The notes under the pieces were generated by a model that searched no databases, had not been told where the DNA came from, and was given only the letters and a program-made list of their open reading frames with translations. Source: a virus (lineage: Duplodnaviria; Caudoviricetes). Taken from it: a stretch of DNA of 56,378 nucleotides. Every line of letters begins with the position of its first letter. Positions within the stretch are counted from its first letter, which is position 1. Below are positions 3,455 through 25,748 of the stretch, one piece after another. The translations under genes were made by a program, and so were the position numbers. The DNA lies in the IMG/VR virus record IMGVR_UViG_3300017779_000007, positions 1 to 56,378 of that record; one strand, written 5' to 3'.

Positions 3455-3891
3455 TCATTTGGGTAAGCCTCCTCCATAATCTTCTCCATCCGTACCCAGT
3501 GGGCGCGACCGTCTCTAGTCTTGAGACGGACGTATTCTTTCTTTCCGAAGTCCTTAGTATGCACTAAGAAGGGGACGCCCCTGTATTTTTTGCCTGTGTT
3601 CTGGTATTTCCAGACGGCTCCGTAAGGCGTTACCTTGTAATCGGGATAGTCGGCTACCACCACGAACTCCTCGTCCGGTAAGCCGTGTCGGACTACAGTC
3701 GGGTTGTCGTGGTTAACCTTTCTATACACACCGTCGTCATCAGTAACAAAGGAATGATGTTTTAGGCTCTGCCAATACCGCTTAATCTTTTTGTCGGTTT
3801 TAAGGTTGTAGATGTAATCGTCGTCGGTCAGGGCGTAGTGGGACGCTCCTTCAACGGGTGTCCAGTCTTCTGGTATGTGGTGTTTGGTCAT
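3451..3891 (-). CDS. Tandem NUMOD4-like DNA-binding protein without nuclease domain
   Basis: Two E.W/F..V.G/DY..Y.(L/V)T motifs (EDWTPVEGASHYALT; EEFVVVADYPDYKVTPYG); no HNH motif. Confidence 0.5.
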   Translation of the reverse strand: MTKHHIPEDWTPVEGASHYALTDDDYIYNLKTDKKIKRYWQSLKHHSFVTDDDGVYRKVNHDNPTVVRHGLPDEEFVVVADYPDYKVTPYGAVWKYQNTGKKYRGVPFLVHTKDFGKKEYVRLKTRDGRAHWVRMEKIMEEAYPND

Positions 3892-3904
3892 GTCGGAAGT
3901 CGGT

Positions 3905-3984
3905 AAAAAAAACTTTTCTCTGAGGCTCTTAGTACCTTATAATATATTATAAGGTACTATACGTCTAGGAAAAAAGTTTTTTTT
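3905..3984. repeat. 80-bp palindromic element, copy 1
   Basis: AAAAAAAACTTTT-12 nt-TAGTACCTTATAATA|TATTATAAGGTACTA (perfect 30-bp palindrome, 3930-3959)-12 nt-AAAAGTTTTTTTT. Confidence 0.95.
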
Positions 3985-4023
3985 CGTAGTTTAGGTGCGG
4001 GTTTTCCAGCACTCCATTCCCTT

Positions 4024-4101
4024 AAAAAAAACTTTTCTCTGAGGCTCTTAGTATCTTATAATATATTATAAGGTACTATACGTCTGGGAAAAAAGTTTTT
4101 T
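4024..4101. repeat. 80-bp palindromic element, copy 2 (direct to copy 1, period 119 bp)
   Basis: Near identical to copy 1, with one C>T change in the core. Confidence 0.95.
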
Positions 4102-4360
4102 ATTGGATTTTAAGTGCCGCTTTTCTAGCATTACGTTTTGCCATGATTTTAGCTTTGTTTTTGCGATAATACTCTTTGTTGTAATTCTTTACGCGATTCT
4201 TGAACGCCTCATACTCCTCCGGTTCAAGGACTTTTGCCACCTCCAATTTCCGAGAGTAGCTGTATTTTGTCTTACGGTAATACTCATTTTGGTAGTCGAG
4301 CCTCTTTTCCCGATTCTTCAAATAGTATTCCTTCTTCTTTTTTGGGTCGTAATTCGCCAT
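4100..4360 (-). CDS. Small Lys/Arg/Tyr-rich basic protein (86 aa)
   Basis: MANYDPKKKKEYYLKNREK...EYYRKNKAKI; promoter directly upstream. Confidence 0.65.
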   Translation of the reverse strand: MANYDPKKKKEYYLKNREKRLDYQNEYYRKTKYSYSRKLEVAKVLEPEEYEAFKNRVKNYNKEYYRKNKAKIMAKRNARKAALKIQ

Positions 4361-4365
4361 GCCCA

Positions 4366-4394
4366 ACTCTAGCCGAAAGCCAGACCCCCGTCAA
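4366..4394 (-). promoter_or_regulatory. Sigma70-type promoter, likely leaderless transcript
   Basis: TTGACG-17 bp-TAGAGT, 5 nt before ATG 4360. Confidence 0.55.
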
Positions 4395-4622
4395 TTTTTT
4401 TCTAAATGGTATATTGTATACACTGCACTCCGTGCAAAAATCCGAGACCTACCGGTGGCGTCTCCCGAACCCCGAACCCCAAATCACTATCATACTATCA
4501 TGATCAACGCATCACGATACGACGATGCGTTAGTAGTGGTGAGGGATCAGGGAAGCGGGATTCATGAATCAGGAATCAGGTGTCGGTGGATCGGAAGGAA
4601 GGCGGGGCATTGCTCTGCATCA

Positions 4623-4846
4623 GGTCCAGTGTCCGGTGTCCAGTGTCCGGTCTGGTGTCCGGTCTGGTGTCCGGTGTCCAGTGTCCGGTCTGGTGTCCGG
4701 TCTGGTGTCCGGTGTCCAGTGTCCGGTCTGGTGTCTGGTGTCTAGTGTCTGGTGTCCAGTGTCCGGTCTGGTGTCCGGTCTGGTGTCCGGTGTCCAGTGT
4801 CCGGTCTGGTGTCTGGTGTCTAGTGTCTGGTGTCTGGTGTCTGGTG
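4623..4846 (+). repeat. Tandem array of GTGTCYR heptamers with GTCTG pentamers
   Basis: Units GTGTCCG/GTGTCCA/GTGTCTG/GTGTCTA/GTCTG; 78-bp higher-order duplication 4674-4751 = 4752-4829. Confidence 0.95.
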
Positions 4847-4849
4847 TTC

Positions 4850-4884
4850 CCCGCTTCCCGCTTCCCGCTTCCCGCTTCCCGCTT
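4850..4884 (+). repeat. (CCCGCTT)5 heptamer array
   Basis: Five perfect copies; reverse complement GGGAAGCGGGA at 4550-4560. Confidence 0.95.
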
Positions 4885-5186
4885 CCCTTATCATGATTAC
4901 TGAATATCGAAAAAAGATTCGATTGTGCTTGCAATAGGTCAATTCCTTTTCTTGGCCCTCAGATGCGATCTGAGAGCGTTTGCCCCCGTCCGGCTGGTCC
5001 TATTCAATTTCTTTTCGAAACGCGATCCTGAGCGATTCGATGTTCTGTTGAACAGTGAAAAGGGTGTTCAAAACTTTGCCTTTATATAGTGTGTTTTTTG
5101 AGGGGCAGCCGGAACATCGAGAAGGGGTTGATTGGTAAGGGATTAGGGTGATCGGTGAAAAAAGAAAAGAATTTGACCGATTTAGC

Positions 5187-5215
5187 TTGCAGAAAGTAAA
5201 CCGTTATTTTAGTTT
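5187..5215 (+). promoter_or_regulatory. Putative early promoter
   Basis: TTGCAG-17 bp-TAGTTT with A-rich upstream tract; first plus-strand genes follow. Confidence 0.5.
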
Positions 5216-5223
5216 CTAGTCAT

Positions 5224-5276
5224 CGCCACAACGGCGTGAGTTGAGTCCACCGACCGACTGCCCCGATCTTTGAAAT
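5224..5276 (+). promoter_or_regulatory. boxB-like hairpin plus boxA-like antitermination motif
   Basis: CGCC-ACAAC-GGCG at 5224-5236; GATCTTTGAAAT at 5265-5276 resembles rRNA-leader boxA. Confidence 0.45.
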
Positions 5277-5330
5277 CACAGAATAGTTTAAGCGTCTTTT
5301 AAATAGCACGGGCCGACATTGGCCCGTTCC

Positions 5331-5395
5331 GCTATTCCCCGCTTCGGCGGGGCATAGCTCACAGCCTCCGGCCATGCCGGAAGTTGCGAGCTATG
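5331..5395 (+). ncRNA. Structured leader element, family 1, copy 1
   Basis: GCTAT-T-CCCCGC-TTCG-GCGGGG-C-ATAGC hairpin overlapping a second hairpin CATAGCTC...GAGCTATG that contains the ATG. Confidence 0.7.
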
Positions 5396-5740
5396 ACAAA
5401 ACAAGAACAAATAGACATCGTTAGAAACGCAGCACAATCTCTCAACGGAACCCTGATGGGAGATTGGCTCGATGAATCGGTTGCCCAAGCCGCCTCTGCA
5501 TTGGACTCTGACATCAATCCAGCAATTTGGGTTCATGGAATAGAAGAGGCAGTCGCGGTGAAGACATCTACCAAGGTCGCCGAAATACAAGCCTCCTTTG
5601 AAAAACGGGAAGCTGAACTAGCCAAGCGGGAAAGAGACTTCGAAAAGCGCGAATCCGACTTCGAACATTGGAGAGCGGACTTCCACAACACCGTCACCAA
5701 GACGGCCTCCCATCTGGAGTATGTGATCGATCACCTCTAA
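5393..5740 (+). CDS. Early hypothetical protein with coiled coil
   Basis: ORF; ATG 5393 at the end of the structured element. Confidence 0.75.
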   Translation: MTKQEQIDIVRNAAQSLNGTLMGDWLDESVAQAASALDSDINPAIWVHGIEEAVAVKTSTKVAEIQASFEKREAELAKRERDFEKRESDFEHWRADFHNTVTKTASHLEYVIDHL

Positions 5741-5748
5741 CCCTAACC

Positions 5749-5813
5749 GCTACACCCCGCTCCGGCGGGGCGTAGCTCTCAGCTACCGGAAAGATCGGTG
5801 GTTGAGAGCTATG
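5749..5813 (+). ncRNA. Structured leader element, family 1, copy 2
   Basis: Same architecture with compensatory change GCTAT/ATAGC to GCTAC/GTAGC. Confidence 0.7.
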
Positions 5814-6167
5814 AGTAATACTACCACAAAGCAAGACGTGTCCGCCCCTACTGTTGAATTCCTCGCCATCACCGGATTCGGCTGGGCCTATGCTGACTCG
5901 CCAGCGATGGCGATTCAGAAAGCGCAATCGAATATCTCCTACGGGGCGAAGCCTCGTAAGGGATCGAAGAAATGGGAGGAGGCTCAAGACAAAATCCATC
6001 TCTGGATGGTTCCCTCCACTTGGCACGGGACTGACAACTACAGGCCCATCGATGAAGACGGCAACCCTGTTGGAATCCTCCTCCACGGCCATTACAAGCC
6101 CGAAGATAAAACGGCCCAATATGAGGTCATGGACTCGGCCATCAAAGGATGGTTGGAAAACAGATAA
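5811..6167 (+). CDS. Early hypothetical protein
   Basis: ORF; ATG 5811 at the end of the structured element. Confidence 0.75.
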   Translation: MSNTTTKQDVSAPTVEFLAITGFGWAYADSPAMAIQKAQSNISYGAKPRKGSKKWEEAQDKIHLWMVPSTWHGTDNYRPIDEDGNPVGILLHGHYKPEDKTAQYEVMDSAIKGWLENR

Positions 6168-6188
6168 CCCTGAACCCTGAACCCTGAA
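6168..6188 (+). repeat. (CCCTGAA)3 after stop codon
   Basis: Direct reading; same unit at 6404-6417 and 8910-8937. Confidence 0.9.
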
Positions 6189-6190
6189 CA

Positions 6191-6403
6191 ATGAAGATTA
6201 AAAAATGGATCGTAAACTTGAATGGCCAACACCACACCGTCACAGGTGATTGCGATGGGCATTTGGAAATTCACATCAGCCACGAGGATGGAACTCCTGT
6301 TTACGCTCTTGAGCGCGACATGGAAACGCCAAACGGATGGTTAGATTCCTTCACATCAGAAGGCATAGAAGGGAACTACCGTAAAAAAATCATCAACCAC
6401 TAA
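6191..6403 (+). CDS. Early hypothetical protein (70 aa)
   Basis: ORF bounded by CCCTGAA repeats. Confidence 0.7.
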   Translation: MKIKKWIVNLNGQHHTVTGDCDGHLEIHISHEDGTPVYALERDMETPNGWLDSFTSEGIEGNYRKKIINH

Positions 6404-6410
6404 CCCTGAA

Positions 6411-6475
6411 CCCTGAACCCCTGCACCATGCAAGACGCATGGTGCAGTATTCAGGGGTCACAACGACCCACTGAA
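6411..6475 (+). ncRNA. Structured intergenic element, family 2, copy A
   Basis: CCCTGAA-ccc-11 bp stem-ta-TTCAGGG then second hairpin ending CTGAA. Confidence 0.7.
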
Positions 6476-6508
6476 ACAGAACCAATAAACCAATAGAAAG
6501 AAAAAACT

Positions 6509-7552
6509 ATGTCACATCAAATTACAGAAATCGACACCGTGTTATGTCCTGAAGGTTCCAAGTATCGCACTTGGCACGGGCTAGAGCAAACATCAGCAAA
6601 GCCGATCACGTTGGAAGTCGCGAGGGATCACGATCTCTTGCCCGTTGTCCGAAAGTCTCCGATTCATGTAGCGGGTAATCACCCGCCGATTGAGAACTTC
6701 AAAGCCCTGACAACGTGGGACAAGAACGGTGAGCTGACCACGCTCGACGTGGTCTCTGACCGATACTCGATCATTCAGAACGAGCAGATATTCAAGACCA
6801 TGTCCGAGTCCTTCAAGGGGACAGGACTGGAATACACTCTGTCCTGCATCGGCACGTTGGGTGGCTTGAAGAAGTTCTTCATCTCGGTCGCCGTAGGCGA
6901 TGACGATGGCGGGTTCACCGTCAACGGTGATAAGTTTCACGGCAACGTGAACTTCAACACCTCACATGATGGAGGATCGTTCTTCGCCAACGACAGTCTA
7001 ACCCGAATCGTATGCGGGAACACACTCCGGCAAAGCATGAACGGAGATAAAAACGTGTCATTCAAGATCAGGCACAAGGGCGATACCGCCAGCAAGGGTA
7101 AGGATCTTAGTCGCTACCTTCAGGCAGTCTTCACCTCTCGCGAAGTATTCGCCGAGAACATGGGCAAGCTGGCTGAACAGCGAGTAGCTGGCGATGACAT
7201 CAAGCAGATCGTCGGTGGCTTCTTTGTGAAAGAAGCATTCAAGCGTGGCGAAAAGCTGGAGGAGGGTTTCAAGACCCGCTCGCTCAACATGATCGACGGG
7301 ATCACTGACCTCGCCATCTCCGGTCGCGGAAACAGTGGACGGTCTCTCTATGATGCCCTCAACGGAGCGACTGAGTTTTGGACGAGTGGTGACGGCGTAG
7401 GCCGGACAGCGAGTGCCGGAAAGAAAGCCTACTCTTCCGAATTCGGAAACGCTGCTGCCAGCAAGGAGAAGTTCTCCGAGTATCTCGTCAAAGGCGAGTT
7501 TGAATCCTCGCTTCAGGAGGATACAAAGCGCATCCTCGCCCTCACTTCCTAG
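6509..7552 (+). CDS. DUF932/DUF945-family phage/plasmid protein
   Basis: Motifs WHGL, VVSDRY.IIQN, SHDG, RIVC.NTL, IRH.G, LYDALN.ATE. Confidence 0.8.
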   Translation: MSHQITEIDTVLCPEGSKYRTWHGLEQTSAKPITLEVARDHDLLPVVRKSPIHVAGNHPPIENFKALTTWDKNGELTTLDVVSDRYSIIQNEQIFKTMSESFKGTGLEYTLSCIGTLGGLKKFFISVAVGDDDGGFTVNGDKFHGNVNFNTSHDGGSFFANDSLTRIVCGNTLRQSMNGDKNVSFKIRHKGDTASKGKDLSRYLQAVFTSREVFAENMGKLAEQRVAGDDIKQIVGGFFVKEAFKRGEKLEEGFKTRSLNMIDGITDLAISGRGNSGRSLYDALNGATEFWTSGDGVGRTASAGKKAYSSEFGNAAASKEKFSEYLVKGEFESSLQEDTKRILALTS

Positions 7553-7556
7553 TGAG

Positions 7557-7612
7557 TCTTGATACACTGCCCCCTCCAGCCGGAGGGGGCAGTAATCAGG
7601 AATGAGCCTGAA
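7557..7612 (+). ncRNA. Structured intergenic element, family 2, copy B
   Basis: TCTTGAT-aca-CTGCCCCCTCC-agcc-GGAGGGGGCAG-ta-ATCAGG-aatgag-CCTGAA. Confidence 0.7.
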
Positions 7613-7634
7613 ATTAAACCAATAAAGAATAAAG

Positions 7635-7793
7635 ATGAAATTCGACAAACTAAGACAGAAACTCGGCATGATCAATCCAGAAACCCTGACCGATGTCCTC
7701 GATGGAAAGATAAAATTAAGTCATGAGGAAAGAGAGGAATTCAATGAATACATGGACATGGGCCGGAGAATGTTCGCAAAAAAGAAATCCTAA
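7635..7793 (+). CDS. Small early protein (52 aa), not in ORF track
   Basis: MKFDKLRQKLGMINPETLTDVLDGKIKLSHEEREEFNEYMDMGRRMFAKKKS, filling the gap between elements B and C. Confidence 0.7.
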   Translation: MKFDKLRQKLGMINPETLTDVLDGKIKLSHEEREEFNEYMDMGRRMFAKKKS

Positions 7794-7799
7794 ACCGGA

Positions 7800-7855
7800 T
7801 CTTGATACACTGCCCCCTCCAATCGGAGGGGGTAGTAATCAGGAATCAGCCTGAA
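7800..7855 (+). ncRNA. Structured intergenic element, family 2, copy C
   Basis: Near-identical to copy B; differences fall in loops or keep G-U pairing. Confidence 0.7.
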
Positions 7856-7873
7856 CTTAAACCCTAAAAATAA

Positions 7874-8386
7874 ATGAGAGAAATAATCGAAGTAAAAGGG
7901 AACTGCACCCTCAAAAAGCAGGGAGGTCGCTACGTCATGACTAACGACTCAACAGGTGCTTGTCATAGCATCTCGGCCCGACCGGACATCAGCCCTCTTA
8001 AGAGGCTGGTGGCCCACTGGGAATCGTTCCTCAAATTACAACTCGATGGAATCGAGTTAAAAGACCTGAACGCTTCCACTCTGAAGGAAGCGTTGAGAGA
8101 GGCAAAGATGGTCGCCCTCGATAACGGAGACGGTGGGGACTACTGCCAGACGGCGGGACAACTCGTCCTTGTAGACTCAGACGGTGAGCGGATCGGTGGG
8201 GGGCCAAGCGTCTACTTTGACGGTCAACCTAAATTGCGAGACATCCGCGAGCTGTTTGAAGACCACCCCAAAGCCGTGACCGTGTCTGTCGAAGGACAAA
8301 CCCGCTGGTATGGTGAGGGGAACGCTGCCCAGCGTTTCGAGGACTCCGAGATCTGCGACTGGTGGGTATTGAACATCGTCCGATAA
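7874..8386 (+). CDS. Early hypothetical protein (170 aa)
   Basis: ORF with A-rich leader. Confidence 0.75.
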   Translation: MREIIEVKGNCTLKKQGGRYVMTNDSTGACHSISARPDISPLKRLVAHWESFLKLQLDGIELKDLNASTLKEALREAKMVALDNGDGGDYCQTAGQLVLVDSDGERIGGGPSVYFDGQPKLRDIRELFEDHPKAVTVSVEGQTRWYGEGNAAQRFEDSEICDWWVLNIVR

Positions 8387-8406
8387 CTTTAACCCTAAAA
8401 CTAAAT

Positions 8407-8634
8407 ATGTATAAGTATACCACAACTGAGCTTCAATCGCTCCCACCGTCATTCGGCGGCAATAATGATTACGGTTGCGAGACCGTCACCTGCTTCTCGC
8501 CTTCTCCTAAGAAGGCGGTAGCGATGGAGGGAACCATCACCCGCTCCCGTGAGGGAGTCGAGGGCGTTCCCGTCCTCCTGAATGCGACCCTAGTCGCCCC
8601 CAACGGTCGAGTCGTTTTCGACCGTTGGGATTAA
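8407..8634 (+). CDS. Early hypothetical protein (75 aa from ATG 8407)
   Basis: ORF track 8362..8634; the internal ATG avoids overlap with the upstream gene. Confidence 0.6.
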   Translation: MYKYTTTELQSLPPSFGGNNDYGCETVTCFSPSPKKAVAMEGTITRSREGVEGVPVLLNATLVAPNGRVVFDRWD

Positions 8635-8651
8635 CCAACAACTAAGCCAGT

Positions 8652-8915
8652 ATGAAAACCGAACAATGCCAAGCCTTTTGGCGAAACAAAAAAGGCGCGT
8701 GTTGCTTGGCCACCTTCCCATCATCCGAGCTTCCTGAGTTTGTGATGAAACGGTGGCGGCAGCGTCAGGAGTGCGATGTTTACTACGTCAAAGATCAAGA
8801 GATTCCGCTTGATGAACACGGTTATCGGGACATCGAATACCGTGCCGGAAAAGTATGGAAGCTCGACGATGGGAGTGATCGTTGGGACTATTACTACGAC
8901 TTCGATGAACCCTGA
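8652..8915 (+). CDS. Early hypothetical protein (87 aa)
   Basis: ORF; stop lies within the first CCCTGAA unit. Confidence 0.7.
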   Translation: MKTEQCQAFWRNKKGACCLATFPSSELPEFVMKRWRQRQECDVYYVKDQEIPLDEHGYRDIEYRAGKVWKLDDGSDRWDYYYDFDEP

Positions 8916-8931
8916 ACCCTGAACCCTGAAC

Positions 8932-8998
8932 CCTGAACCAGTGCGCCCTGTAGATGATACAGGGCGCACCATTCAGGAGTCATGAAGACTCTTATGAA
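8932..8998 (+). ncRNA. Structured intergenic element, family 2, copy D
   Basis: CCTGAA-cca-GTGCGCCCTGTA-gatga-TACAGGGCGCAC-ca-TTCAGG then hairpin GAGTC-atgaa-GACTC..TGAA. Confidence 0.7.
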
Positions 8999-9641
8999 CA
9001 AGAATAAAACTGTGAAAAAAATAAAAGAATACCCCGAAGGGGACATAATCGAGTCCGCACCTGTAAGGTCTGGCCGGACTGAGTTGGAATACTACAAACT
9101 ACACCTATGGGCATATTCCGATGGAACATACACCATTGGTGATGATGACGGTGACCATGAGGAAGCTGATAAAGAGGATGTGGAGGAGTTCTTGAGGCTA
9201 TCGCCTCAACGACACAGGGCGTATGATGACTACGTTGCCGAGACCGGAGAAGACCCCTGCGAATTATACTTCGTTGCTCGAAAGCGTGAGGTCAATCAAC
9301 GTGTGGAGTTACACCTGCAAAACTACGTAGGGGCATCCGAGTTTGGATTGCGCCTAAGAAAGGTAACGCTCCCCAACGGTGAGGATATTACACCCGCCCA
9401 ATGCCTCGCCGATCACCCAAAATTGGCTGAGTTTATTGAGCTTAAAAAACAGGAGTCGGGACACTTCATCTTGGATGAGGTAAACGAGCAGGTGCTTCGG
9501 GAATGCCCCGAAGTAGAGGAGTGGCAGGATTATCTCAGCACCGTGTTCGTGAATGCTGTCTGGGATGAGCCGATCCCTGAAGAGGAACTGCGCGTCACGC
9601 TCCGAGAGAAGGCGAAAAAATCACTAGAAAGTAACCGATAA
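8982..9641 (+). CDS. Acidic early hypothetical protein (219 aa)
   Basis: ORF track; start uncertain (8982/8994/9012). Confidence 0.75.
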   Translation: MKTLMNKNKTVKKIKEYPEGDIIESAPVRSGRTELEYYKLHLWAYSDGTYTIGDDDGDHEEADKEDVEEFLRLSPQRHRAYDDYVAETGEDPCELYFVARKREVNQRVELHLQNYVGASEFGLRLRKVTLPNGEDITPAQCLADHPKLAEFIELKKQESGHFILDEVNEQVLRECPEVEEWQDYLSTVFVNAVWDEPIPEEELRVTLREKAKKSLESNR

Positions 9642-9657
9642 GCAATAAACCAAGATT

Positions 9658-9831
9658 ATGATTAAAGAAAAATACCTAGTGACAATATATCAAGAAACTT
9701 ACACTACTGTTGAAGTGGAAGCAAACGATAAGCATGAAGCAGAAGACCTTGCTCTTATGGGAGAAGGCAAAGTTGATGACGTTACGATCAAAGATTCAGA
9801 AGTGATAACCAATAAACCAATAAACCAATGA
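9658..9831 (+). CDS. Small protein (57 aa), DpnD/PcfM-like pattern
   Basis: MIKEKYLVTIYQETYTTVEVEANDKHEAEDLA...; not in ORF track; ATGA overlap with next gene. Confidence 0.6.
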   Translation: MIKEKYLVTIYQETYTTVEVEANDKHEAEDLALMGEGKVDDVTIKDSEVITNKPINQ

Positions 9832-9950
9832 GCAAAACTCAGTTAGTAATCGCGTCCACGATCTTTCTCGTTGCCGTGTATTCAATCCACGCCGTCGGTG
9901 GCATCGATACCATCGTCCGACGACTAATCTCCACGATATTTGAACTATGA
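9828..9950 (+). CDS. Small membrane protein (40 aa)
   Basis: MSKTQLVIASTIFLVAVYSIHAVGGIDTIVRRLISTIFEL; ATGA overlaps on both sides. Confidence 0.6.
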   Translation: MSKTQLVIASTIFLVAVYSIHAVGGIDTIVRRLISTIFEL

Positions 9951-10090
9951 ATTATTTAGAAATCGTCGGAGTTATATTAGCCACGCCTCTGATCGTCATA
10001 GTCATCGCCGCGAGCATGATCAAGTCGGAAGCTCGCCGGATCGAGAAACTGAAGCAGCGTGCCGATAGGAAGAAAGGGAGGCGTTCATGA
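9947..10090 (+). CDS. Small membrane protein with basic tail (47 aa)
   Basis: MNYLEIVGVILATPLIVIVIAASMIKSEARRIEKLKQRADRKKGRRS; ATGA overlaps on both sides. Confidence 0.65.
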   Translation: MNYLEIVGVILATPLIVIVIAASMIKSEARRIEKLKQRADRKKGRRS

Positions 10091-10527
10091 TCTACTTCAC
10101 CGACACCGACCCCGACGAGGCAGCGAGCAATCTCTGCGACCGTCACCTGCGAAAGACCGTGAGATTCACCCAAAAAGTGTTCTCGGAAGCCGCTGAGAAT
10201 CGCACACAGCATCGCGACCCGTATGTCCGGTGGGGCTGTTCAAGTCTCACGAACTTAAAATGGGTCGTTGAACATGGAAACGCATCGGCTCATGAGCTTT
10301 ACTATCGATTCCACAAACCCGTCCGAATCGAAGACAGCCTGCCTTTGATCAGGGCCAGAGAGATGATGGACTCTCTGGCCCTCCCGCCCGTAGACCCCGA
10401 CCATATCTTCTTTCCTGATGAAATAGATAAGGTTAGGGAGTTTTACCGTTTAAAGGTTTTTCCAAAATCGAGATGGACAAGGCGATATCCGCCTGATTGG
10501 ATGCACCCGTCACTTCTGGTGAAGTGA
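10087..10527 (+). CDS. Pyrimidine-dimer DNA glycosylase/endonuclease V-like protein (divergent)
   Basis: M.YF.D.DP..AA..LCDRH..K, H..P...W...S..N..W...H......E...RF.K, YR.FY-like and WT.R..P.W tail. Confidence 0.65.
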   Translation: MIYFTDTDPDEAASNLCDRHLRKTVRFTQKVFSEAAENRTQHRDPYVRWGCSSLTNLKWVVEHGNASAHELYYRFHKPVRIEDSLPLIRAREMMDSLALPPVDPDHIFFPDEIDKVREFYRLKVFPKSRWTRRYPPDWMHPSLLVK

Positions 10528-10545
10528 CTTGTTTATTCATAGCAC

Positions 10546-10580
10546 AAGGAGGTAGGGAGAAATCCCTGCCTCCTTTTTTT
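10546..10580 (+). terminator. Intrinsic terminator of early region
   Basis: GGAGGTAGGGA-GAAA-TCCCTGCCTCC followed by T7. Confidence 0.85.
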
Positions 10581-10652
10581 GTGCCTAGAAATAAGTGGGA
10601 AAAACCGCCCAGAAATCCCCCACTTACTATCATAGTTTAATCCACGCAAGCT

Positions 10653-13600
10653 CTACTCAGATTCTGTAATAGGCCGGACAGGAATGTAGCGGTTGAGCTT
10701 TGAGGCGTGGTCGTAGACCTGCTGCGCTCGCGCCCTACCATATTCATCAGTCCTTGGGTCGAGCAGACCCTCGATAATGTATTTGAACGACGGCTTGTCC
10801 ATGTAACCTTTACTCAGTAGAGCGACCCGATCTCGACCCAGCTTCTTATCCTTCATCCCCTTGAGGAGGTCGGTGTTAGTGAGTCCGAGAGAGGCGAACC
10901 CTTTATTGATCCGCATCAGTTCGTAGTTAAGGAGGCGTCGATCCTCGATGTTCTCATCGATGATGTCCGCTACATCTCCGTCGCTCATCGGGACGTTACG
11001 CTTCACCGCGTTGAGTCCGCTCTTCACGTTGTTGTATCGCTTGTTTAGATCCAGCAGGTATCGCGAATACTGTTTCTGGAGATCAACATCATGAACACGC
11101 GCAGGCATCGCGCCGTCCATAATCTCAAGAGTCATGCCCTTCAGAGATCCGGTTGACCAGCCCTCGACAAAATCTTTACCAAGTCGCGGAGCGTATGCCT
11201 CCTTGGCGATGTAACCTAAGATCTTCGATCCAGCTTCCACCGGACCATCGGCCCCCTTATTCCAAATTGGTTTACCCGTTGACGGGTTAAGGTTTCGGCG
11301 AGCCTCAGACACTGCTCCCGCGAGAATCTGATCGTCTAAGTATTGATCCCTCACCAAGCCTAGCGCGAGAGCGGCTCCCGCTTCGGTGAACTCACCGCTG
11401 CGGATGTTCTCATACGCTCGCAGGAATGGATCGACCAGTAGCGAGTATGGATTAACGTAAGTAAGGTCAACCGACTTCAGCTCACCGTTCCATCTGTAAT
11501 AGAAGAACGTATGCCCTCTGAGGTAATCTGGAATGGATGCACGCATGGCCTCGTCCTCCTCATCTCCGATGCCCGAAAGAGCAGCGAGGATCATAGGAAG
11601 AGCGGAAGAAAGAACTCCTATCGTTCCGGTCATCCAGATCATTCTAGTTTTACCTCTCCGAACCAGAACAGGATTGCCGCTGGCGATCTCCTCACTGGCG
11701 AGCTTGTACGTGTTGATCACGATTCGCGGAACCTCCATCTTGAATCGGATGAACGGGGCGAACAGCAGGCCGAGGCCAGACTTCGTGTATGCTGCGACGG
11801 CTGGCGGTGCTTGGCTGTATGCCTGTGAGGTCATGACTACCTTGCGAGCGGCCAGACGCTTGATCTGCGTGTCGCTCATATTGGCTAGGTTGTTGACCCT
11901 CACTTTGCCGTCCTCGACCGTGCTTGTGTCGGCGGCTTGGGCTTCCTTCAGAATTGCCAACTCATGGTTGTAGTAGGCGACCTTGTAGGCGGCGTCGAGA
12001 GCGGCGGATAAATCCTGTGCCTTCTTCTCAATTATCGCTAGAGCCTTAGTGGCTTTATTGAGTTTCGTCTTTTCACCTAAGTCTTCGATCTGCTTCCTGA
12101 TGCCGTCGGGTGTTATCCTACCGTTCAGGAGGTCTCTCATAACTCCGGCGCGGAGTTCGTCGCCCTTGATATTCAGGCCGATAAGCTCATTAAGCTCTGG
12201 GTCAATCTCACCTTCGTTAAATGGGTTTAACACGCCGAAAGTCCCTTTCGCCATTTCAGCGATCATCTTATCGTAGCGGAGAAATCCCTGTGAGGTTCCG
12301 AACAATAAGTTACCGATTCCGTTTCGTAAGTAGAATCCGATGGAGCCTAGAGTCTTAGCTGCCATTGCCTTACCGCTCAGGTTAGCGGCTAAACCAACAG
12401 CTCCCTTAACAGCCTTCTCCGCTGTGTCGGCGTAATCCATCGAGAAGGAGTCATTGAGCGTAGTATCCAGAAGCTTTTTGAATTCAGGATCTACCTGCAT
12501 TCCTGAGAGGGGGTCGTTCTTACTCGGCGCACCCGATCTGGCGGCGACGAAGTTAGCATACTTGACGCGGTTCTCTTTGGTAGCGAGCTTCTCTTCCACC
12601 GTGACCATGACGCCCGTTTCCTTGCCGAATGCCACCAGTTGGTTCAGGAATGCCTGCTGCGAAGCGAGTGTCGCGACGGTCGAGTAAGTCCGAAGAATCA
12701 AATCAGTGCCAGCCTCCGACCCGATTTCGCCGAGAAGATTTCGGATCTCCACCGGCAAATCTTTGCGTCTTTTCAGGTTGTCCTCGATCATCTTGTAATG
12801 TTTAGGCGAAGCAGTCGTCGAGTCTCTGCCTCCTTCGTCATACCGCATCAAGAAAGTGTTAAGCACCTCTTGCGCGTATGATTTATGTGGGTAGCTTTGG
12901 TTCTCTTTTTCGAGGAGTATACGAGCTTCAACCTCGGCACGCGACTTGTCCATGCCGCCCTCAACCAGCTCCTCAAACTTCTTATCTTTAAACTGTTTAT
13001 TAAAGAACCTCATAGCCTCGTCCCTCACAACTTGATAATTGGGATCTTCCCTCACCTTCTGGAGGTAAGACGAGTCGGTGAACATCTTATAACTACGGGT
13101 AATGTAGACTCCTCCGGTCTCAGAGATCTTGACTCCAATATTATCGTCAAGGCCCGACTTAACGAGTTTCTTCTGCAACGGGATGATCAGCCTCTGCCGT
13201 ATGTCGATAATGTGAGCGGCAAGCTTCGGAGATTCCTTAGCGAGTTCTCTCAGAGCGGCGTCGCGGTCAGCTTCCCTAGAAGTGATAGCCTCTTCGTAAG
13301 CTTTATCGGTGGCCTCAGTTCTCGCATTATGGGCGAGTCCCTTTAGGGAGTCAGCTTCTTCCTCAGTGATTAAGCCTACTTTGCGCTTCTTCTCTGCGTC
13401 GGCGTGCGCGGCTTCGTAATCTTTATCAATATCTTTAAGAACTTCCTCAGTGACTATGTTACCTGTGTAGTGTCCCTGCGCGAGAGCGATCAAATCCATC
13501 GGCGCGTATTCGTAACCGCCGTAGTTTTCCTCAATGAGTTTATCCATCTCCTGTTTATAGGCGACGACGTTAGCCTCAGTAAGTCTCTTGTAAGCGTCTC

Positions 13601-16600
13601 GGTTCTGGATTAATCGGCGGAAGGCTTCTGGAAGCTCGCCAGCGAACACCTTATTCAGGAACTCCATGATGAAGTTCTGTGGCTTTCCGGTCTCCAGCTC
13701 GTATACAGGAATCTCAAGGAGATCGACCACTGCGGCGAAGTTTATGGTCGAACCTGTCGGCTTGCTGGACGGAGCGGCTGCGGCTGCGGTGGGGGCTGAA
13801 TACAGAGGTAGTTTTACGGTCTCAACTCCCTCGTCCGCTTTTCTAAATATAAGTTCGCGTTGAGAAACACCAACGGACGGTGGGAAGATGCTGTCTTCCT
13901 CCGATTTTTTAATTGGGTCTGTGTTGCCGTCATATGGATCGGCTGCTTTTTTGGGGTTAGGTTTCTTAGCCGAGTAAACTACGTCTTTCCACAGGTTGGA
14001 CTCACTCAGAACGTGGACTACAGGTGTCTCACCCGAAGTGCTGCGTATAGAATACGGGTATGAGTCATGGAAGTCAGTCTCGACGGCTTCGACCTCTCCC
14101 TTCATCGAGAGAACAGCGTATACCCGCCCAGAGGCTTTCTTATCCATTTGCTGAAATTGCTGGAAGGTCTTGACCAGAGGCTCTGCAAAAAGATCTGCCA
14201 TGCCCTGCATGACTGATGCCATTTTGAGGTTACCTGTAGGTATTAAAGATTTATTGTATAGGTTCTTGTCACCAGCCAGAAGGTTAGCTATGTTCAAAGC
14301 CTGATTTTTCTTTTTATCGAAAGCAGCTTTTTCCTTTGGGTTGAACTTCTTCTGAACTTCCGCTGTAGGCAGTTTCATGCTGTCAGCTATTGCTGACGCT
14401 ATCTGAGCGACAAAGGAACCGCGTTGTGGGAACACTGACTCTTCAGGGAGGAGATTCTTTTTCATCTCCTCTATGTTTTTAGCCAGTCCGTCTTTCAGCT
14501 TCAGTTTCCTTGAAAATTCTTTGATGGTGGTCGTCTCGACTCCTGTATCTTTGTCTTTCTTTTTAAGAACTAATCTCTCTTTACTGGCGTTAACAATAGC
14601 ACGGTTTACGACCGCCTCAGTGATCCCATACTTCTTGGGGTTCTTGGCTAGAGTGGCGAACAGGTTGACCGCTCCCGTAGCCATTGTTGTGGAGCTAAAC
14701 ATCTTCTCGATGGGAGCGGACGTGAGAGCCATCAGAATAGTTCCGTTGTTGCGCTTGGATATCTTGTTAAGGTTTTCCGCCATGTTCACGGCGGCGTCCT
14801 TGGTAGATGCCCAGAAATACCCTTGGTCACCGAACATGACTGGGTAGTAAACACCTCCCTTGCCGTCTACGACCTTATCGCCCTCGACCTCCAGTGTGCC
14901 TGCCATCGCGCCGTCAGGTTGGTGGAGCATGACGGCCATTCCCTCAAACTGGTCGAGGGATTGCTGTATCTTAATGTATCCGTTCTTGATCTTCTCGTAA
15001 AACTTCCCGTCCTCTTTGACGTAGATATGTTTAACTATGGGGTCACTCGCACTGGCGATTTCTGGTGGGATCTCGGCGGGTGTAGTAGCACCAGCCACCG
15101 GAGCAGAGTAAAGGATACTGCTTTTACTTTCATCGAACCGCTGGCTAAGTGGGATCACGTTGCCGTTAGCGTCACGGGTGATAGGGTCTGCGGATTTGAG
15201 TTGATCGGGTGACCTTACGACAAGGTGTTCCGTGTCGTGAAAACTGAACGCTTCCTCCAAGTCCTCATAGGTTGTTATGGTCTCGTTCGGGTTGTTCTCA
15301 AGGTAGAGTTCCGCGCCCCCGAGAGCAGAGTCCTTTTTTATCACGAAGTAACCGGATCGTTCATTTTGTCCATCTAGCGACACAGGCTCCCCTTGGTCAA
15401 AATCCCGCTGCTGCTTCTGGGTAGGGAACCCAGCAGGTTCACTAAACACAACCGTATCGAACCCAGAAGGGAAGCCATCCGTCTCCTCTCCACGAGCCAC
15501 CATTTGTTGTGCTGTAACTCGATCAATGGTTCGTCCTTTCTTGACGAAAAGGTCGAGAACCTTGTTGTCGGTCCGCTGATATCTATAGGACGAAAATGTG
15601 TCGGCTTCATTCGATACATGAAAACCGCGAATATTGGTGTCTGGATCAAACTCAGGGATCTCGCCTCGGTCGAATGCGTCGAAGGTTGCTCCAGTTGCGT
15701 GTTTAGTGCGGGTTTCATACCCCGCTGCCTTAGCGCGTCGTTCCACCATCGTCCTCAACTCAAGCCAGTTCTTCTCAGGATCTTTGGCAAGCTCTAGATA
15801 CTCAACGTCTTCTACCGGAGCAGACGCTAAACCAACGAAGTCCTGATTAACGACCTCAAACATTTGGAAAACTTCCGTCGGGTTCTTGGTATCGAACGCC
15901 ATCTTCGTAGGCTGACGGACGAACCCAGCTTCGATAGCTCGCATCTCAATAATCAACTTATTGAGGGCAACATCTGCTGCGGGTCCGATCTGTTCACGCT
16001 TGGCGACCCATCGGTTGATGATCCCCCTAAAGTAACGACCTAGAATTTTAAGTAAGGAAGGCTTGGATTTCCAGAATTGGTTATCATCCTCGGTAGTAAA
16101 GCCCCGTGTGACCTTCTGGAAGTGCATACGAAGTTTCTCTTGTGCCAACCCATACTTAGCTTTTGCGACCACTTGAGGGTCTGACGACTGAAGGCTCACT
16201 ATCGCAGCCGCAAGTCTTGGTTCGTTTCCGACATGGTATTCTTTAGCGATGTCCACGAAGTCCGAGTCAGAAAGACTGTTGATGTAATTCTGAACCTCTC
16301 CGTCGGTCATGGAACTCCAACTGGCACTATGCACTAACTCCTCGTTGATTATAACACCAGCGATTGCGCGTCCGGCGATGTCCCCAACGCCGCCTGTCTG
16401 GCTCAACATAAGAGGGAGGTTGATATATACCGCTGAAGAATCAGACTGCACAAAAGAAGAACTTCCATCGGACTCAGTAACAAATTCTAGTTCCATGCCG
16501 AATGGAATCAGACCTCTGAGATAATTCAGTAGGGGTAATGCTTTAGAGCGGTCTTCCTCTGGGATAAGTGAGAGGAATTTTTCGCGCTCTACCTCGTCTT

Positions 16601-19600
16601 TAAGACGCTTCGATTCAAGACGTTTTTCCTCTGTATCGTCCTGCATCTCGCGCAACGCTTCTCTCCTCTCCGCTTTCCTCTCAGCCATATATTCAGGAGA
16701 GAAAACTGGTGAACTGGATAACGTCGCGTTATTAGCGATTGCCCCAGCCAAAGCTCCGGCGTTGGTAGGCGGACCCTTGCGGGGATTGCTCCCCACGTCG
16801 ATAATATCTCCAAGAGACTCCGCTACTTCTTTAGCAGATCCTATCCCCACATTCGGGAACAACATAGCTATGTTGATAAGGAAGCTATCAAAGGGTGAGG
16901 AGTTGTTAGTTGGTTTTAGATTTTTGAAGTGCTTCTGAACGTCCTCCGACAACAAGAACTGAGCGGTGAACTCGTTAAGATCGACAAGAGCGTTCTCAAG
17001 AGATGGGACGGGTCCGCTGCTTTCTTTTTGCGATTCGTAGGTTTCTTTCGCGAAGTCGAAAACACTGGACAACTGGTTAACTATACCTTGTTTACTTGAG
17101 GGTGGATTTGAAATAGTTCCAGAAATGAATGCGTGGACATACTCCTCAAGTAATGTGTTGACGAGACCTCGACCGTTTCCAGACGTGACATTGATGAACA
17201 CACTGTCCGAGCCGTCTTTTCCCTTAACGTATTTTCCTGCGATGTCGGCTTTTGCTTCGCCCATCACAAACTTAATCTTCTTGATGAAGGCGGTGTCGCG
17301 CAGCAGCAAGGTAGCTACAAATTTATGGGAAGGGATCTTTGAATTTTTAGCGACTTCTTTAAGGGCTTCAATAACACTGTCGGGGTTCCCACTCTCAAGA
17401 CCCAGTCTCTCAATATCAGCCTTGTTCTCAGCCGTAATGACTGCCCTTTCGGCGGCAGAGATGTTAGATCTCGATAGGTGGGTTCGGACTGCTTTGGTTA
17501 AAGCAATCATTGTGTTCTTCGCCTCTTCCGCAGTGATCTCTGTTTCCGCGCCTGCATTGAACTGAGCTTGGAAATCGCTCACAGCGTCAGAGTTCTCGTA
17601 GCTAGCACCGTCTGAGGGGGTCACTAAGCGGACGAGTTGTAGCGCGTTCAGGAAATCTTCGCTGCCGATTAATACTTTGTCCTCCAGAATCTCCACAAGG
17701 CTATTAACAGACGGCCTAGTGTCGCCGTTTCCAGATGAAAGCCATGAAGCGAATATCCCGAACAGGTCTTTAGAACTCGCGTTCTCAACCATGTCTTCCA
17801 TCTCAGGATCTTCCAATACGTCTTCAAGAATAACCTTGACGATTCCCTTGCGTAAGTCTGGGCTAGTGTTTACGGTATTAACCGCTTTTTTCATCGCCCC
17901 AGATACTGTGTTACTTATATCTTGTGGGGAAGCGAAGTCGCCTACAGGGTTTTCACCGAAGTTAAAAACCCAACTACTTACTTTAGGGTTCTTGAATTGA
18001 TCGGGAGTTATATCGAACGGAAGGGTAGAGGCCGCTCTCTGTTGTCTAAGGGAGGTGGCTTTTTCTTGCTGATTCTTAAATTCGTTCGCGGCTTTTTTAA
18101 GTAGCGTATCGAAGGTCGGCGTTGTGTTATTAGCGAAGTCTGGGTTGTTCAAGAGTTTCTGCTCTACGAACAATCCGAGAATCGTTTCTCCCGTAAGCTC
18201 TTTGTTAGATTCTACTTTAATGAACGGGAGTAGTTTTTGAGCCGCTTGATCTACATTCTTAGATCCCGTCTGGGCTACCAGCTCATCGAAGGGAGTGGTA
18301 GGGTTGGTTCCTTCTCCGAACGCTTCTACTTTTGCGCGAAGACTAAACAACTGTGCGTTAAATAAGAATTCTTGTTTAGCTGACTCAAATGCCACCATGC
18401 GGAACTCCTCGTTAAGCTCCCCGTCGTTGGCTTCAAGGAGGGCTTGGGCGTTGCGATTCGTTTCGTCTCCGGTCTTCTCTAGCTCAAGGGCGAACCTATT
18501 GATTTTTCTTTTGATCGACGTAGTATTAGAAAAGTTTCCATCAGTAATTGGGCTTCCATTTTTGTCAAAGTCTGGAACACCTTCAGGTAAGGTCGCAGGC
18601 TTGAAACGGATACTAGCTATAGCAGAAGCTCTCGTATTGTTTGGCCCAATCGAACTTACGCCCCTCGCGTTAGTGACCTTAGACTCTAGGAGAGTGCCGT
18701 CGGCAGTAGGTCCGACCACGTCACTAACCATCTCATTTTTAATTCGGATAGCGGGGTTGAGGTTTGCTCTATTGAAACTACGAGGAACCTTAACGGTTTT
18801 ACCAGCCCTCAACATCTCAATAATAGAGATCGGGTCGTTGTCGAACACGCCATTACCTCTATCATCAACGAAGAATTTAACTGGCTGGGTAACGGTCTTA
18901 CCGGATACGGGATCGAAGTAAGTCCTGAAAGGTCTCTTCTCATTATCAGGGTCGAGCTTCGCGTTCTTTGGGGGAGCGAGTTTAGGGTAAGCTGTATAAA
19001 CAGCAGAAGACACAAACTCTGACGCGGACTGGCGAGACGAGTCAGGAGGCATAGGTAAACCGTAGTTTACGTTGGGGTCAGGATTAATCGGAAACCCATT
19101 ACCCATCGCGAAGCCAATAAGCCTGTTAGCTTTCTCCTCTGCGTCAGGCCCACTAAAGGGAGACTCTTCATACCTAAATGTATTGGGTGACGGCCTTGAA
19201 GAATACCTCTTGGATTTAGTTGGGTCGAATCCACGGACGCTGTTGTTAGCGGAACTTATGTTCGTTCTGGACTCGCCTTGAAGGGTGACGCCAGCAGATT
19301 CTGCGTTAGCCTGTTCTTGAGTAAAGTCGATATAAGGTCCGGTGTAGTCCTTAATTTCTCTAGGGGATTTACGACCGTAATCGAAAGGAGTCTCTAGAAC
19401 TGTGACGGGTTCACTATTTCTAACGGAGACGCTCTGCTGGTTTCTGATGTTCTCTAAAGCAATTTCAACGTCGAGTGGGCTAGAATCGTTCAGGGACTGC
19501 AAGAACACCACCGGATCTACCTTCTGGTCAGTAAGTGCGAAATCAGGAGTAGTAGGTGACTGCGCTGCAACTTCAAGGTTTTGTTCCTTTTGCGAAATGG

Positions 19601-25669: not shown

Positions 25670-25748
25670 AAAAAAACTTTTTTCCCAGACCTTTAGTACC
25701 TTATAATATATTATAAGGTACTAAGAGCCTCAGAGAAAAGTTTTTTTT
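25670..25748. repeat. 80-bp palindromic element, copy 3 (inverted relative to copies 1 and 2)
   Basis: Reverse complement reads AAAAAAAACTTTTCTCTGAGGCTCTTAGTACCTTATAATATATTATAAGGTACTAAAGGTCTGGGAAAAAAGTTTTTTT. Confidence 0.95.

Follow-up and report, generated by a model that had tools for sequence, protein, structure and literature searches.

Structured intergenic elements on the sense strand of an operon in an uncultured marine phage

The 56,378-base stretch of DNA analysed here (hereafter the window) constitutes an entire virus record (IMGVR_UViG_3300017779_000007), a complete phage genome bounded by direct terminal repeats, and between the small genes of one of its operons it carries four copies of an element in which an inner hairpin is flanked by short conserved arms. 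That these copies represent a new family of structured intergenic elements in an uncultured marine phage group is well supported by our data, and we are highly confident that the structure is real and belongs to the sense strand. An initial annotation, made from the sequence alone, had placed four switch-like elements at 6411, 7557, 7800 and 8932 and had proposed a conserved RNA or single-stranded DNA (ssDNA) hairpin, such as an RNase III site, a switch or a recombination substrate; all four copies were located there. As to their function, we tentatively favour an intercistronic RNA processing and stability element that has also served as a joint for recombination, by analogy with the RNase III sites of phage T7 and with the PeSL elements of T4-type phages.

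Each copy occupies the gap between two genes, and all are built alike: the upstream gene ends in its stop codon, and there follow a 5' arm that contains UGA and is often the terminal unit of a CCCUGAA heptamer array, a small internal loop, an inner hairpin of variable sequence, a 3' arm of the type WUCAG, a second CUGA 13-23 nucleotides (nt) past this arm, an A/C-rich leader without a Shine-Dalgarno sequence and the next start codon (Table 1). In each of the four copies the inner stem has 11-12 bp, perfect or with a G-U pair, and is closed by a loop of 4-5 nt, and the outer helix has 6-7 bp; in the full family the inner hairpin has 11-13 bp, which together with the outer helix and the internal loop makes a duplex of about 20 rungs. 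The inner stems differ between the copies and yet all of them pair, as had been noted at the outset, with a single G-U in copy 3. The outer helix is of two kinds, CCTGAA/TTCAGG (copies 1 and 4) and CTTGAT/ATCAGG (copies 2 and 3), which differ by an A-U to U-A swap and a C-G to U-G change. The internal loop was thought to be kept at three nucleotides against two, which holds for copies 1 and 4, but in copies 2 and 3 it becomes 2x1 if an extra A-U pair is counted; among the relatives it always interrupts the helix, yet its size ranges from 1x2 to 2x3. The initial description also needs one correction, in that the 5' arm of copies 1 and 4 is the last unit of a (CCCTGAA)n array of two and four units, respectively. 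The loop sequences of the inner hairpins are not conserved among the copies. In copy 1 the loop at 6432-6436 is exactly reverse-complemented with respect to that of the related contig L002 (2093-2097) and those of L142 and L146, while the stem is unchanged, as in an inversion at the centre of a palindrome.

Table 1. Positions of the four elements, with their parts, and of two further features of the same operon in the window
Feature	Position	Strand	Parts	Basis or remark
Copy 1	6404-6475	+	Upstream stop TAA 6401-6403; two CCCTGAA heptamers 6404-6417; 5' arm 6411-6417; CCC loop; inner stem 6421-6431/6437-6447 (loop 6432-6436); TA loop; 3' arm TTCAGGG 6450-6456; alternative helix 6450-6459 with 6465-6475 (A'' CTGAA at 6471-6475); A/C-rich leader 3' of the element up to ATG 6509	Covariance model, 80.1 bits
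Copy 2	7550-7620	+	Stop TAG 7550-7552; 5' arm TCTTGAT 7557-7563; inner stem 7566-7577/7582-7593, loop AGCC; 3' arm ATCAGGA 7595-7601; alternative partner CCTGA 7607-7611; leader to ATG 7635	Covariance model, 70.6 bits
Copy 3	7791-7863	+	Stop TAA 7791-7793; 5' arm TCTTGAT 7800-7806; inner stem 7809-7820/7825-7836, one G-U; 3' arm ATCAGGA 7838-7844; alternative partner CCTGA 7850-7854; ATG 7874	Covariance model, 69.2 bits; near duplicate of copy 2
Copy 4	8910-8998	+	Four CCCTGAA heptamers 8910-8937, the first holding the upstream stop TGA 8913-8915; 5' arm 8932-8937; CCA loop; inner stem 8941-8952/8958-8969; CA loop; 3' arm TTCAGG 8972-8977; mini-hairpin 8977-8981/8987-8991; TGAA 8995-8998	Covariance model, 86.7 bits
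CCCTGAA heptamer array without hairpin	6166-6190	+		AACCCTG in the repeat finder's register; adjoins ATG 6191
Intrinsic terminator	10546-10582	+	13-bp stem and T run, listed as 10546-10575	Terminator scan

The conservation of the fold was assessed in an alignment (A2) of 18 distinct copies from the window and six related records. The positions assigned to helices are paired in 96.8% of 317 cells, while shuffling of the columns gave 81.0 +/- 1.4% (0 of 500 shuffles reached the observed value) and sliding of the 3' partners by 1-3 columns left only 35-47% paired. Changes on both sides of a pair were found in 11 of the 18 pairs, including 10 of the 12 inner-stem pairs, and a smaller set of copies agrees with this; stems at orthologous places, such as those of copies 1 and 4 in the window, L001, L002, L083 and G004, differ from each other by several double changes. 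The proposal of a conserved structured element is therefore borne out by compensatory changes and by retention of the structure in homologues. The comparison of G-U with A-C appositions, suggested earlier as a way to assign the functional strand, gave 27 G-U against 5 A-C cells, the latter being confined to two columns at helix ends (29-41 and 14-55). Six different pairs show wobbles, in several lineages, and metagenomes supplied new variants with further wobbles of the + strand. Because these wobbles would be A-C mismatches on the - strand, it is the + strand that folds, which is also the sense strand of all the flanking open reading frames (ORFs). The simplest carrier of the fold is therefore RNA, that is, the messenger RNA (mRNA).

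The 3' arm (WTCAG followed by G or TG) is complementary not only to the 5' arm but also to the downstream (C)CTGA, and in copies of the copy-1 and copy-4 types the alternative helix encloses a mini-hairpin of 3-5 bp. When each 3' arm was compared with the next 37 nt, the summed length of the longest complements was 88 against 60.2 +/- 3.1 in 1000 shuffles (maximum 71), and the pairing is individually recognisable at P<=0.065 in 12 of the 18 copies. Two copies of G006 have the 3' arm TCAGTG and the downstream partner CACTGA, which is a compensatory change in the alternative helix. According to the folding model, the 3' arm would fold onto the downstream motif in 18 of 18 copies once the 5' arm is barred from pairing, and the closed and the alternative states are predicted to lie within 2.1 kcal/mol of each other in 15 of the 18 copies and within 4.1 kcal/mol overall. 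The pairing of TCAG(G) with a downstream (C)CTGA, on which the label 'switch-like' had been based, is thus real, but it is weak in copy 4, where only TTCA and TGAA can pair; the label itself is supported, by the statistics and by the one compensatory change, as a property of the sequence.

A covariance model (R1), built from an alignment (A1) of 11 copies and searched with the filters off, found four + strand matches of 69-87 bits in the window, the next best match elsewhere scoring 12.4 bits; the reverse complements of the four places scored 20-38 bits on the - strand. As nothing else exceeded 12.4 bits, the family is confined to this operon and to one orientation. The model was made from these very copies, and the independent support comes from the relatives and from the pair counts. 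No Rfam family reached its gathering score anywhere in the window, and at E<=1 the region 5200-9200 returned only a chance-level microRNA match of 25 bits against a gathering score of 100.

Among related viral records, copies stand at orthologous places in G001 (three), G002 (four), G004 (three), G005 (one) and G006 (at least three), and one more copy was found in an 18.7-kb phage-like contig binned with an uncultured Opitutae metagenome-assembled genome (MAG), which is weak evidence as to the host. We also examined 26 metagenome loci that encode the DUF932 protein found between copies 1 and 2. At 77% identity or more, 11 of 12 loci carry together 19 + strand matches of at least 53.9 bits; the twelfth, L166, has at the copy-2 position a different GC hairpin, without U tract and without the arms. 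The 14 loci at 54% identity or less gave one weak match to R1, although heptamers and/or a U-less GC hairpin often follow the DUF932 gene there. In the clade at about 50% identity the hairpins have no 3' arm and the R1 matches are unconvincing (E of 0.1 in G003, 22 bits in L153). Pattern scans of viral contigs with the 3' module gave 27 stretches, and of the 23 new loci, which were searched with R1 alongside L008, L033 and L003, only L083 has a real element; with the arm of copy 2 they gave 28 stretches, of which 26 were searched with R1 and yielded no match, the other two lying on the known relatives L004 and L131. One candidate, L008, which has heptamers and a continuous 12-bp hairpin, was ruled out by R1. 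A scan of genome contigs, with a pattern that covers the heptamer-type copies only, gave 50 matches, and the single true element among them is that of the 18.7-kb contig. Tandem arrays of the CCCTGAA heptamer and its near variants were also seen in MAGs of Acidobacteriota, Planctomycetota, Verrucomicrobiota and other groups and in a Pseudoalteromonas isolate (L033-L082). The cyanobacterial host that such arrays had led us to suspect was rejected, as the arrays are mostly from MAGs of the three phyla named and no record is titled as a cyanobacterium.

The position of the elements relative to the genes is regular. Of 19 copies, 16 are preceded by an open frame of 55 codons or more whose end lies 10-31 nt ahead of the inner stem, either within the 5' arm or heptamers or just before them; the three exceptions have upstream frames of 17, 28 and 38 codons, and one of them adjoins a contig end. 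On the other side, 8-62 nt separate the stem from the next ATG with an open frame of at least 30 codons. The ATG within the copy-4 mini-hairpin probably belongs to the element, as the frame that it opens in G004 and L002 is only 4-12 codons long. No promoter-like site was found on the + strand in 3700-10800, all five sites of this region being on the - strand, with the reservation that the consensus used may not be that of the host. Because of this, and because several of the gaps between stem and ATG (8-41 nt) are too short to hold a promoter, the downstream genes must be transcribed through the hairpins. The lack of a U tract had been noted at the outset, and none was found 3' of the element in the flanks of the 18 copies; the terminator scan lists the operon end and none of the four elements. 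Among the 39 gene starts listed for the whole window, 38 are given with ATG, and only one of these (start 10087) has a Shine-Dalgarno sequence, the other leaders being A/C-rich and G-poor, which suggests that the host initiates translation without Shine-Dalgarno pairing. The motif CAGGAG in the 3' arm was considered as a sequestered ribosome-binding site and rejected, since the genes of this phage almost never have one.

The elements also coincide with breakpoints of the gene order. Homology of the window with L001 sets in at copy 1 (6405) and is lost at copy 2 (7619). A single chimeric copy 2/3 stands in L001, with the homologue of orf75 immediately after it, and the window and L002 have the order copy 2, orf52, copy 3, orf170, orf75. 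In metagenome relatives the copy-2-type element is followed by any of three different genes (orf52, orf75 or orf170), and unrelated ORF ends precede copy 1. At copy 4 the conservation extends about 45 nt past the element and does not include the next gene. Since the arms and the leader are conserved and the flanking genes are not, the elements seem to act as short patches of homology, and comparison of the sequences suggests that these are the places where gene cassettes were swapped, acquired or lost among related phages. The suggestion of a recombination substrate is supported to this extent, but no recombinase was found: a search of the whole genome for the tyrosine recombinase family PF00589 gave no match at E<=1, while the control found this family in 14 of 14 genomes.

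A similar pattern is described for the PeSLs of T4-type phages, which combine a strong sigma-70-like promoter, a terminating stem-loop and a Shine-Dalgarno sequence (PMC2839356, PMC4122927). These two papers report an ORFan with a motif on either side in one phage where its relative has just one motif, joints of insertions, deletions and swaps inside the motifs, and chimeric motifs that mark deletions. They also describe PeSLs as conserved intergenic cassettes of about 100 nt with a stable stem-loop, flanking small ORFans in a plastic region, in all of which our elements resemble them; our elements differ in that no promoter-like site, no U tract and no Shine-Dalgarno sequence were found with them.

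In the explanation that we tentatively favour, the four copies would act in cis as RNA structures formed by the sense strand, within a single long polycistronic transcript. The 3' arm paired with the 5' arm would give the irregular duplex of about 20 rungs, and paired with the downstream CUGA a small hairpin. The closed duplex would be a signal for processing and stability of the kind that is cut by the host RNase III in the early transcript of T7, in which hairpins about two helical turns long, irregular in shape, interrupted by an internal loop and not followed by a U tract, stand between nearly all the genes. If the duplex were cut in or close to the internal loop, the upstream message would end in the inner hairpin as a cap that blocks 3' exonucleases, and the freed 3' arm could pair with the downstream CUGA to give the next message a protective 5' hairpin. 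The second state acquires a purpose under this scheme because cleavage would free the 3' arm for the 5' hairpin. The same elements would also provide the short homology patches for exchange of cassettes between related phages. The freedom of the loop sequences, one of which is reverse-complemented between relatives, indicates that it is the duplex rather than the loop that is recognised, and the 'family 1' hairpins of the same operon, which are described below, are also of 19-20 bp. The general layout (a co-oriented operon with hairpins between the cistrons and one terminator) mirrors the early region of T7, where the intercistronic hairpins are likewise irregular, of about 20 bp, interrupted by an internal loop, and keep their shape while their sequences differ. 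There is no sequence relation to the T7 sites, and the phage element would add to their design a UGA-containing arm, the heptamer arrays and a second, mutually exclusive helix. By testable features the elements belong neither to T7-type RNase III sites nor to PeSLs; their shape is closest to the former and their evolution to the latter.

A number of observations weigh against this explanation or reduce the force of the evidence for it. Many of the 18 copies are close kin, and the cell counts overstate the number of independent events. The wobble bias would also fit hairpins of + strand ssDNA as the carrier of the fold, G-T wobbles being tolerated in ssDNA too. The alternative pairing is weak in 6 of the 18 copies (W_c4, L001_c4, L002_c4, L002_c3, G004_a and G004_b), and the change to TCAGTG/CACTGA is probably a single event common to L083_b and G006_c. 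The two-state feature is not essential at these positions, since the hairpins of L166 and of the clade at about 50% identity differ. Cleavage by RNase III is predicted from the geometry and the T7 analogy, and no RNase III gene was found in the phage genome. A search for RNA sequencing runs that cover 5200-9700 listed none. Finally, the conserved UGA/UCA core of the outer helix is unneeded for a pure double-stranded RNA signal and could reflect the use of stop codons or binding of a protein.

The position of the stop codons, in or just before the 5' arm, could also be taken to mean that the element is operated by ribosomes: a terminating ribosome would cover the 5' arm and the 3' arm would flip onto the CUGA, the whole serving as a switch or insulator. 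In its variants the element would tune the initiation of the next gene in the absence of a Shine-Dalgarno sequence, or would keep the G-containing 3' arm off the A/C-rich leader. The two nearly isoenergetic states predicted for all 18 copies fit such a device, and with 37 of the 38 ATG starts lacking a Shine-Dalgarno sequence and with G-poor leaders, initiation should be sensitive to structure. Intergenic heptamer repeats (TAACTGA) of Beggiatoaceae, Cyanobacteria and Bacteroidetes, situated near starts in regions poor in ribosome-binding sites, were proposed to be post-transcriptional signals (PMC4679880), which also speaks for a role in translation. These repeats, too, are tandem 7-nt units containing UGA in gaps near starts that lack canonical ribosome-binding sites, but the unit of the phage is CCCTGAA and its last copy forms one strand of a conserved helix, while no associated hairpin is reported for the TAACTGA repeats in the abstract and outline of that paper (PMC4679880). 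The start codon, however, is sequestered in neither state in copies 1-3, the ATG being 20-45 nt past the downstream CUGA, and in four copies the stop codon is 23-31 nt upstream, a distance at which a terminating ribosome would probably not reach the last heptamer to open it. We consider the ribosome-operated switch, with its variants taken jointly, to be rather unlikely. A related and more speculative idea, which we consider improbable, is that of a 'plug-and-play' connector of gene cassettes for phages of hosts that do not use Shine-Dalgarno sequences. Here translation would end in the CCCUGAA heptamers whichever of the three frames was being read, the terminating ribosome would open the outer helix, and the flip of the 3' arm onto the CUGA would set the processing or initiation of the next gene, so that any ORF brought in by recombination at the conserved arms would be correctly stopped, insulated and expressed.

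The gene-order breakpoints would also be explained if the element worked primarily in DNA, as a boundary sequence that exists because it promotes cassette exchange, possibly as an extruded hairpin or cruciform, with the RNA structure as a by-product. The chimeric copy 2/3 where the cassette is absent, the three different genes after the same type of element, the diverse genes before copy 1, the flipped loop of copy 1 (a sign of palindrome dynamics at the level of DNA) and the similarity to the PeSL pattern (PMC2839356, PMC4122927) are all in line with this. But homology suffices for recombination, and the compensatory changes of the inner stem, the one-sided G-U bias and the strict sense orientation would be left without explanation; besides the missing tyrosine recombinase, there is no promoter-like site, which is half of the definition of a PeSL. 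The attC sites of integrons come to mind, since they also follow each cassette ORF and have conserved short outer arms, an unpaired spacer and a variable inner stem, while the cassette content varies. The inner stems of our elements have no extrahelical bases, however, no integrase accompanies them, the wobble bias fits the coding strand, and the arms CTGAW/WTCAG do not fit the attC core motif. We hold a primarily DNA-level role to be improbable, and the same grade applies to the idea that the hairpins alone grade the expression of the operon as attenuators, pause sites or factor-dependent terminators. The latter would agree with GC-rich hairpins of 11-13 bp right after stop codons, with the U-less GC hairpin that distant relatives keep at the same position and with the efficient termination reported for PeSL stem-loops (PMC2839356). 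Against it stand the absence of a U tract in 18 copies, when the real end of the operon has both a stem and a T run, and the need for read-through into downstream genes that have no promoter-like sites and follow gaps too short to hold them; nor does termination need the outer helix, the internal loop and the alternative pairing. That the elements are selfish or neutral palindromic repeats of the REP or MITE kind, merely tolerated in intergenic gaps, is still less probable in our opinion. Copies 2 and 3 are near duplicates, the elements are found only in a plastic accessory region, and heptamer arrays of the same kind are found in many unrelated bacterial MAGs; against this, orthologous copies keep their position and structure while the stems turn over by compensatory changes, all copies have one orientation, and one true element, on a phage-like contig, among 50 genome contig matches to a pattern for the heptamer-type copies gives no sign of a host-wide family. 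REP and BIME sequences are high-copy repeats of host chromosomes with conserved sequence that stabilise the upstream mRNA. The phage elements share with them the form of U-less imperfect palindromes after stop codons inside operons, but are low-copy and phage-borne, with stems of freely varying sequence. The idea of hairpin promoters read by a virion-borne RNA polymerase, on the model of phage N4, deserves hardly any credence: the hairpins do stand upstream of genes and a 3921-aa protein is encoded beside the operon, but Pfam, PHROGs and PDB sequence searches gave no polymerase signal in this protein, the wobble bias is on the non-template strand and the stems are about twice as long as those of N4 promoters.

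To our knowledge, the intergenic signals of uncultured marine phages are almost unknown. The present family is backed by covariation, can be assigned clearly to one strand and conserves an unusual design with two states, and it is placed where relatives have swapped genes; it is a candidate for a new RNA family entry and may be of use as a compact bistable part for synthetic operons. If the processing mechanism is true, the elements show how a phage of a host without Shine-Dalgarno sequences punctuates its polycistronic message, with the punctuation doubling as a joint of modular evolution, which would extend the PeSL idea beyond T4-type phages and to elements without promoters. If instead the connector idea were correct, one RNA/DNA module would couple translation termination, the fate of the mRNA and modular gene exchange.

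The genome that carries the elements encodes a family-A DNA polymerase, a helicase, a primase-like protein, a PD-(D/E)XK nuclease and a large terminase, a gene set by which we recognise a tailed phage. The sequences most closely related to it are contigs of uncultured viruses and of marine metagenomes, and comparison of 6000-10000 of the window with a phage collection gave no cultured phage match at the nucleotide level. The elements are located in a co-oriented block of small + strand ORFs at about 5.3-10.5 kb that mostly have no known family, the DUF932 protein (6509-7552) being an exception; we infer that these small accessory genes are early genes. The terminator that closes the operon reads as a terminator both ways and faces a convergent ORF of 3921 aa (10653-22418, - strand). 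The product of this ORF gave only a sub-threshold match to ART-PolyVal, and none among PHROGs or PDB sequences; it is possibly a polyvalent protein that the phage injects.

Several other structured or repetitive features were seen in the window and in a relative. The 'family 1' double hairpins (5337-5395 and 5755-5811), each a short GC hairpin followed by one of 19-20 bp, are unrelated in sequence to the four-copy family and occur in up to five copies in relatives. The last three bases of their stems are read as the ATG of the next ORF, which fits at 5393; the ATG placed at 5809 reads CTA, the start coordinate being a few bases off. Perfect 12-bp hairpins are present inside ORFs at 8599-8629 and 10351-10382; a stop codon follows 3 nt after the former, which is unchanged in L001 and L006 and may do the same job as the intergenic elements. 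Long tandem heptamer arrays, of GTCCGGT-like and then CCCGCTT units, occupy 4612-4887 within about 1.2 kb of poor coding signal (4100-5300). In the related phage L083 a long hairpin at 8988-9092, the arms of which are opposed arrays of a CCCTGAT-like heptamer, marks a break of homology with the window (at about 4466). The gap between the divergent operons contains two near-palindromes of about 80 nt (3905-3984 and 4026-4101), and a third copy of their AT-rich core palindrome of 28-30 nt is found in another inter-operon gap at 25693-25724; they may be an operator, a promoter or an origin.

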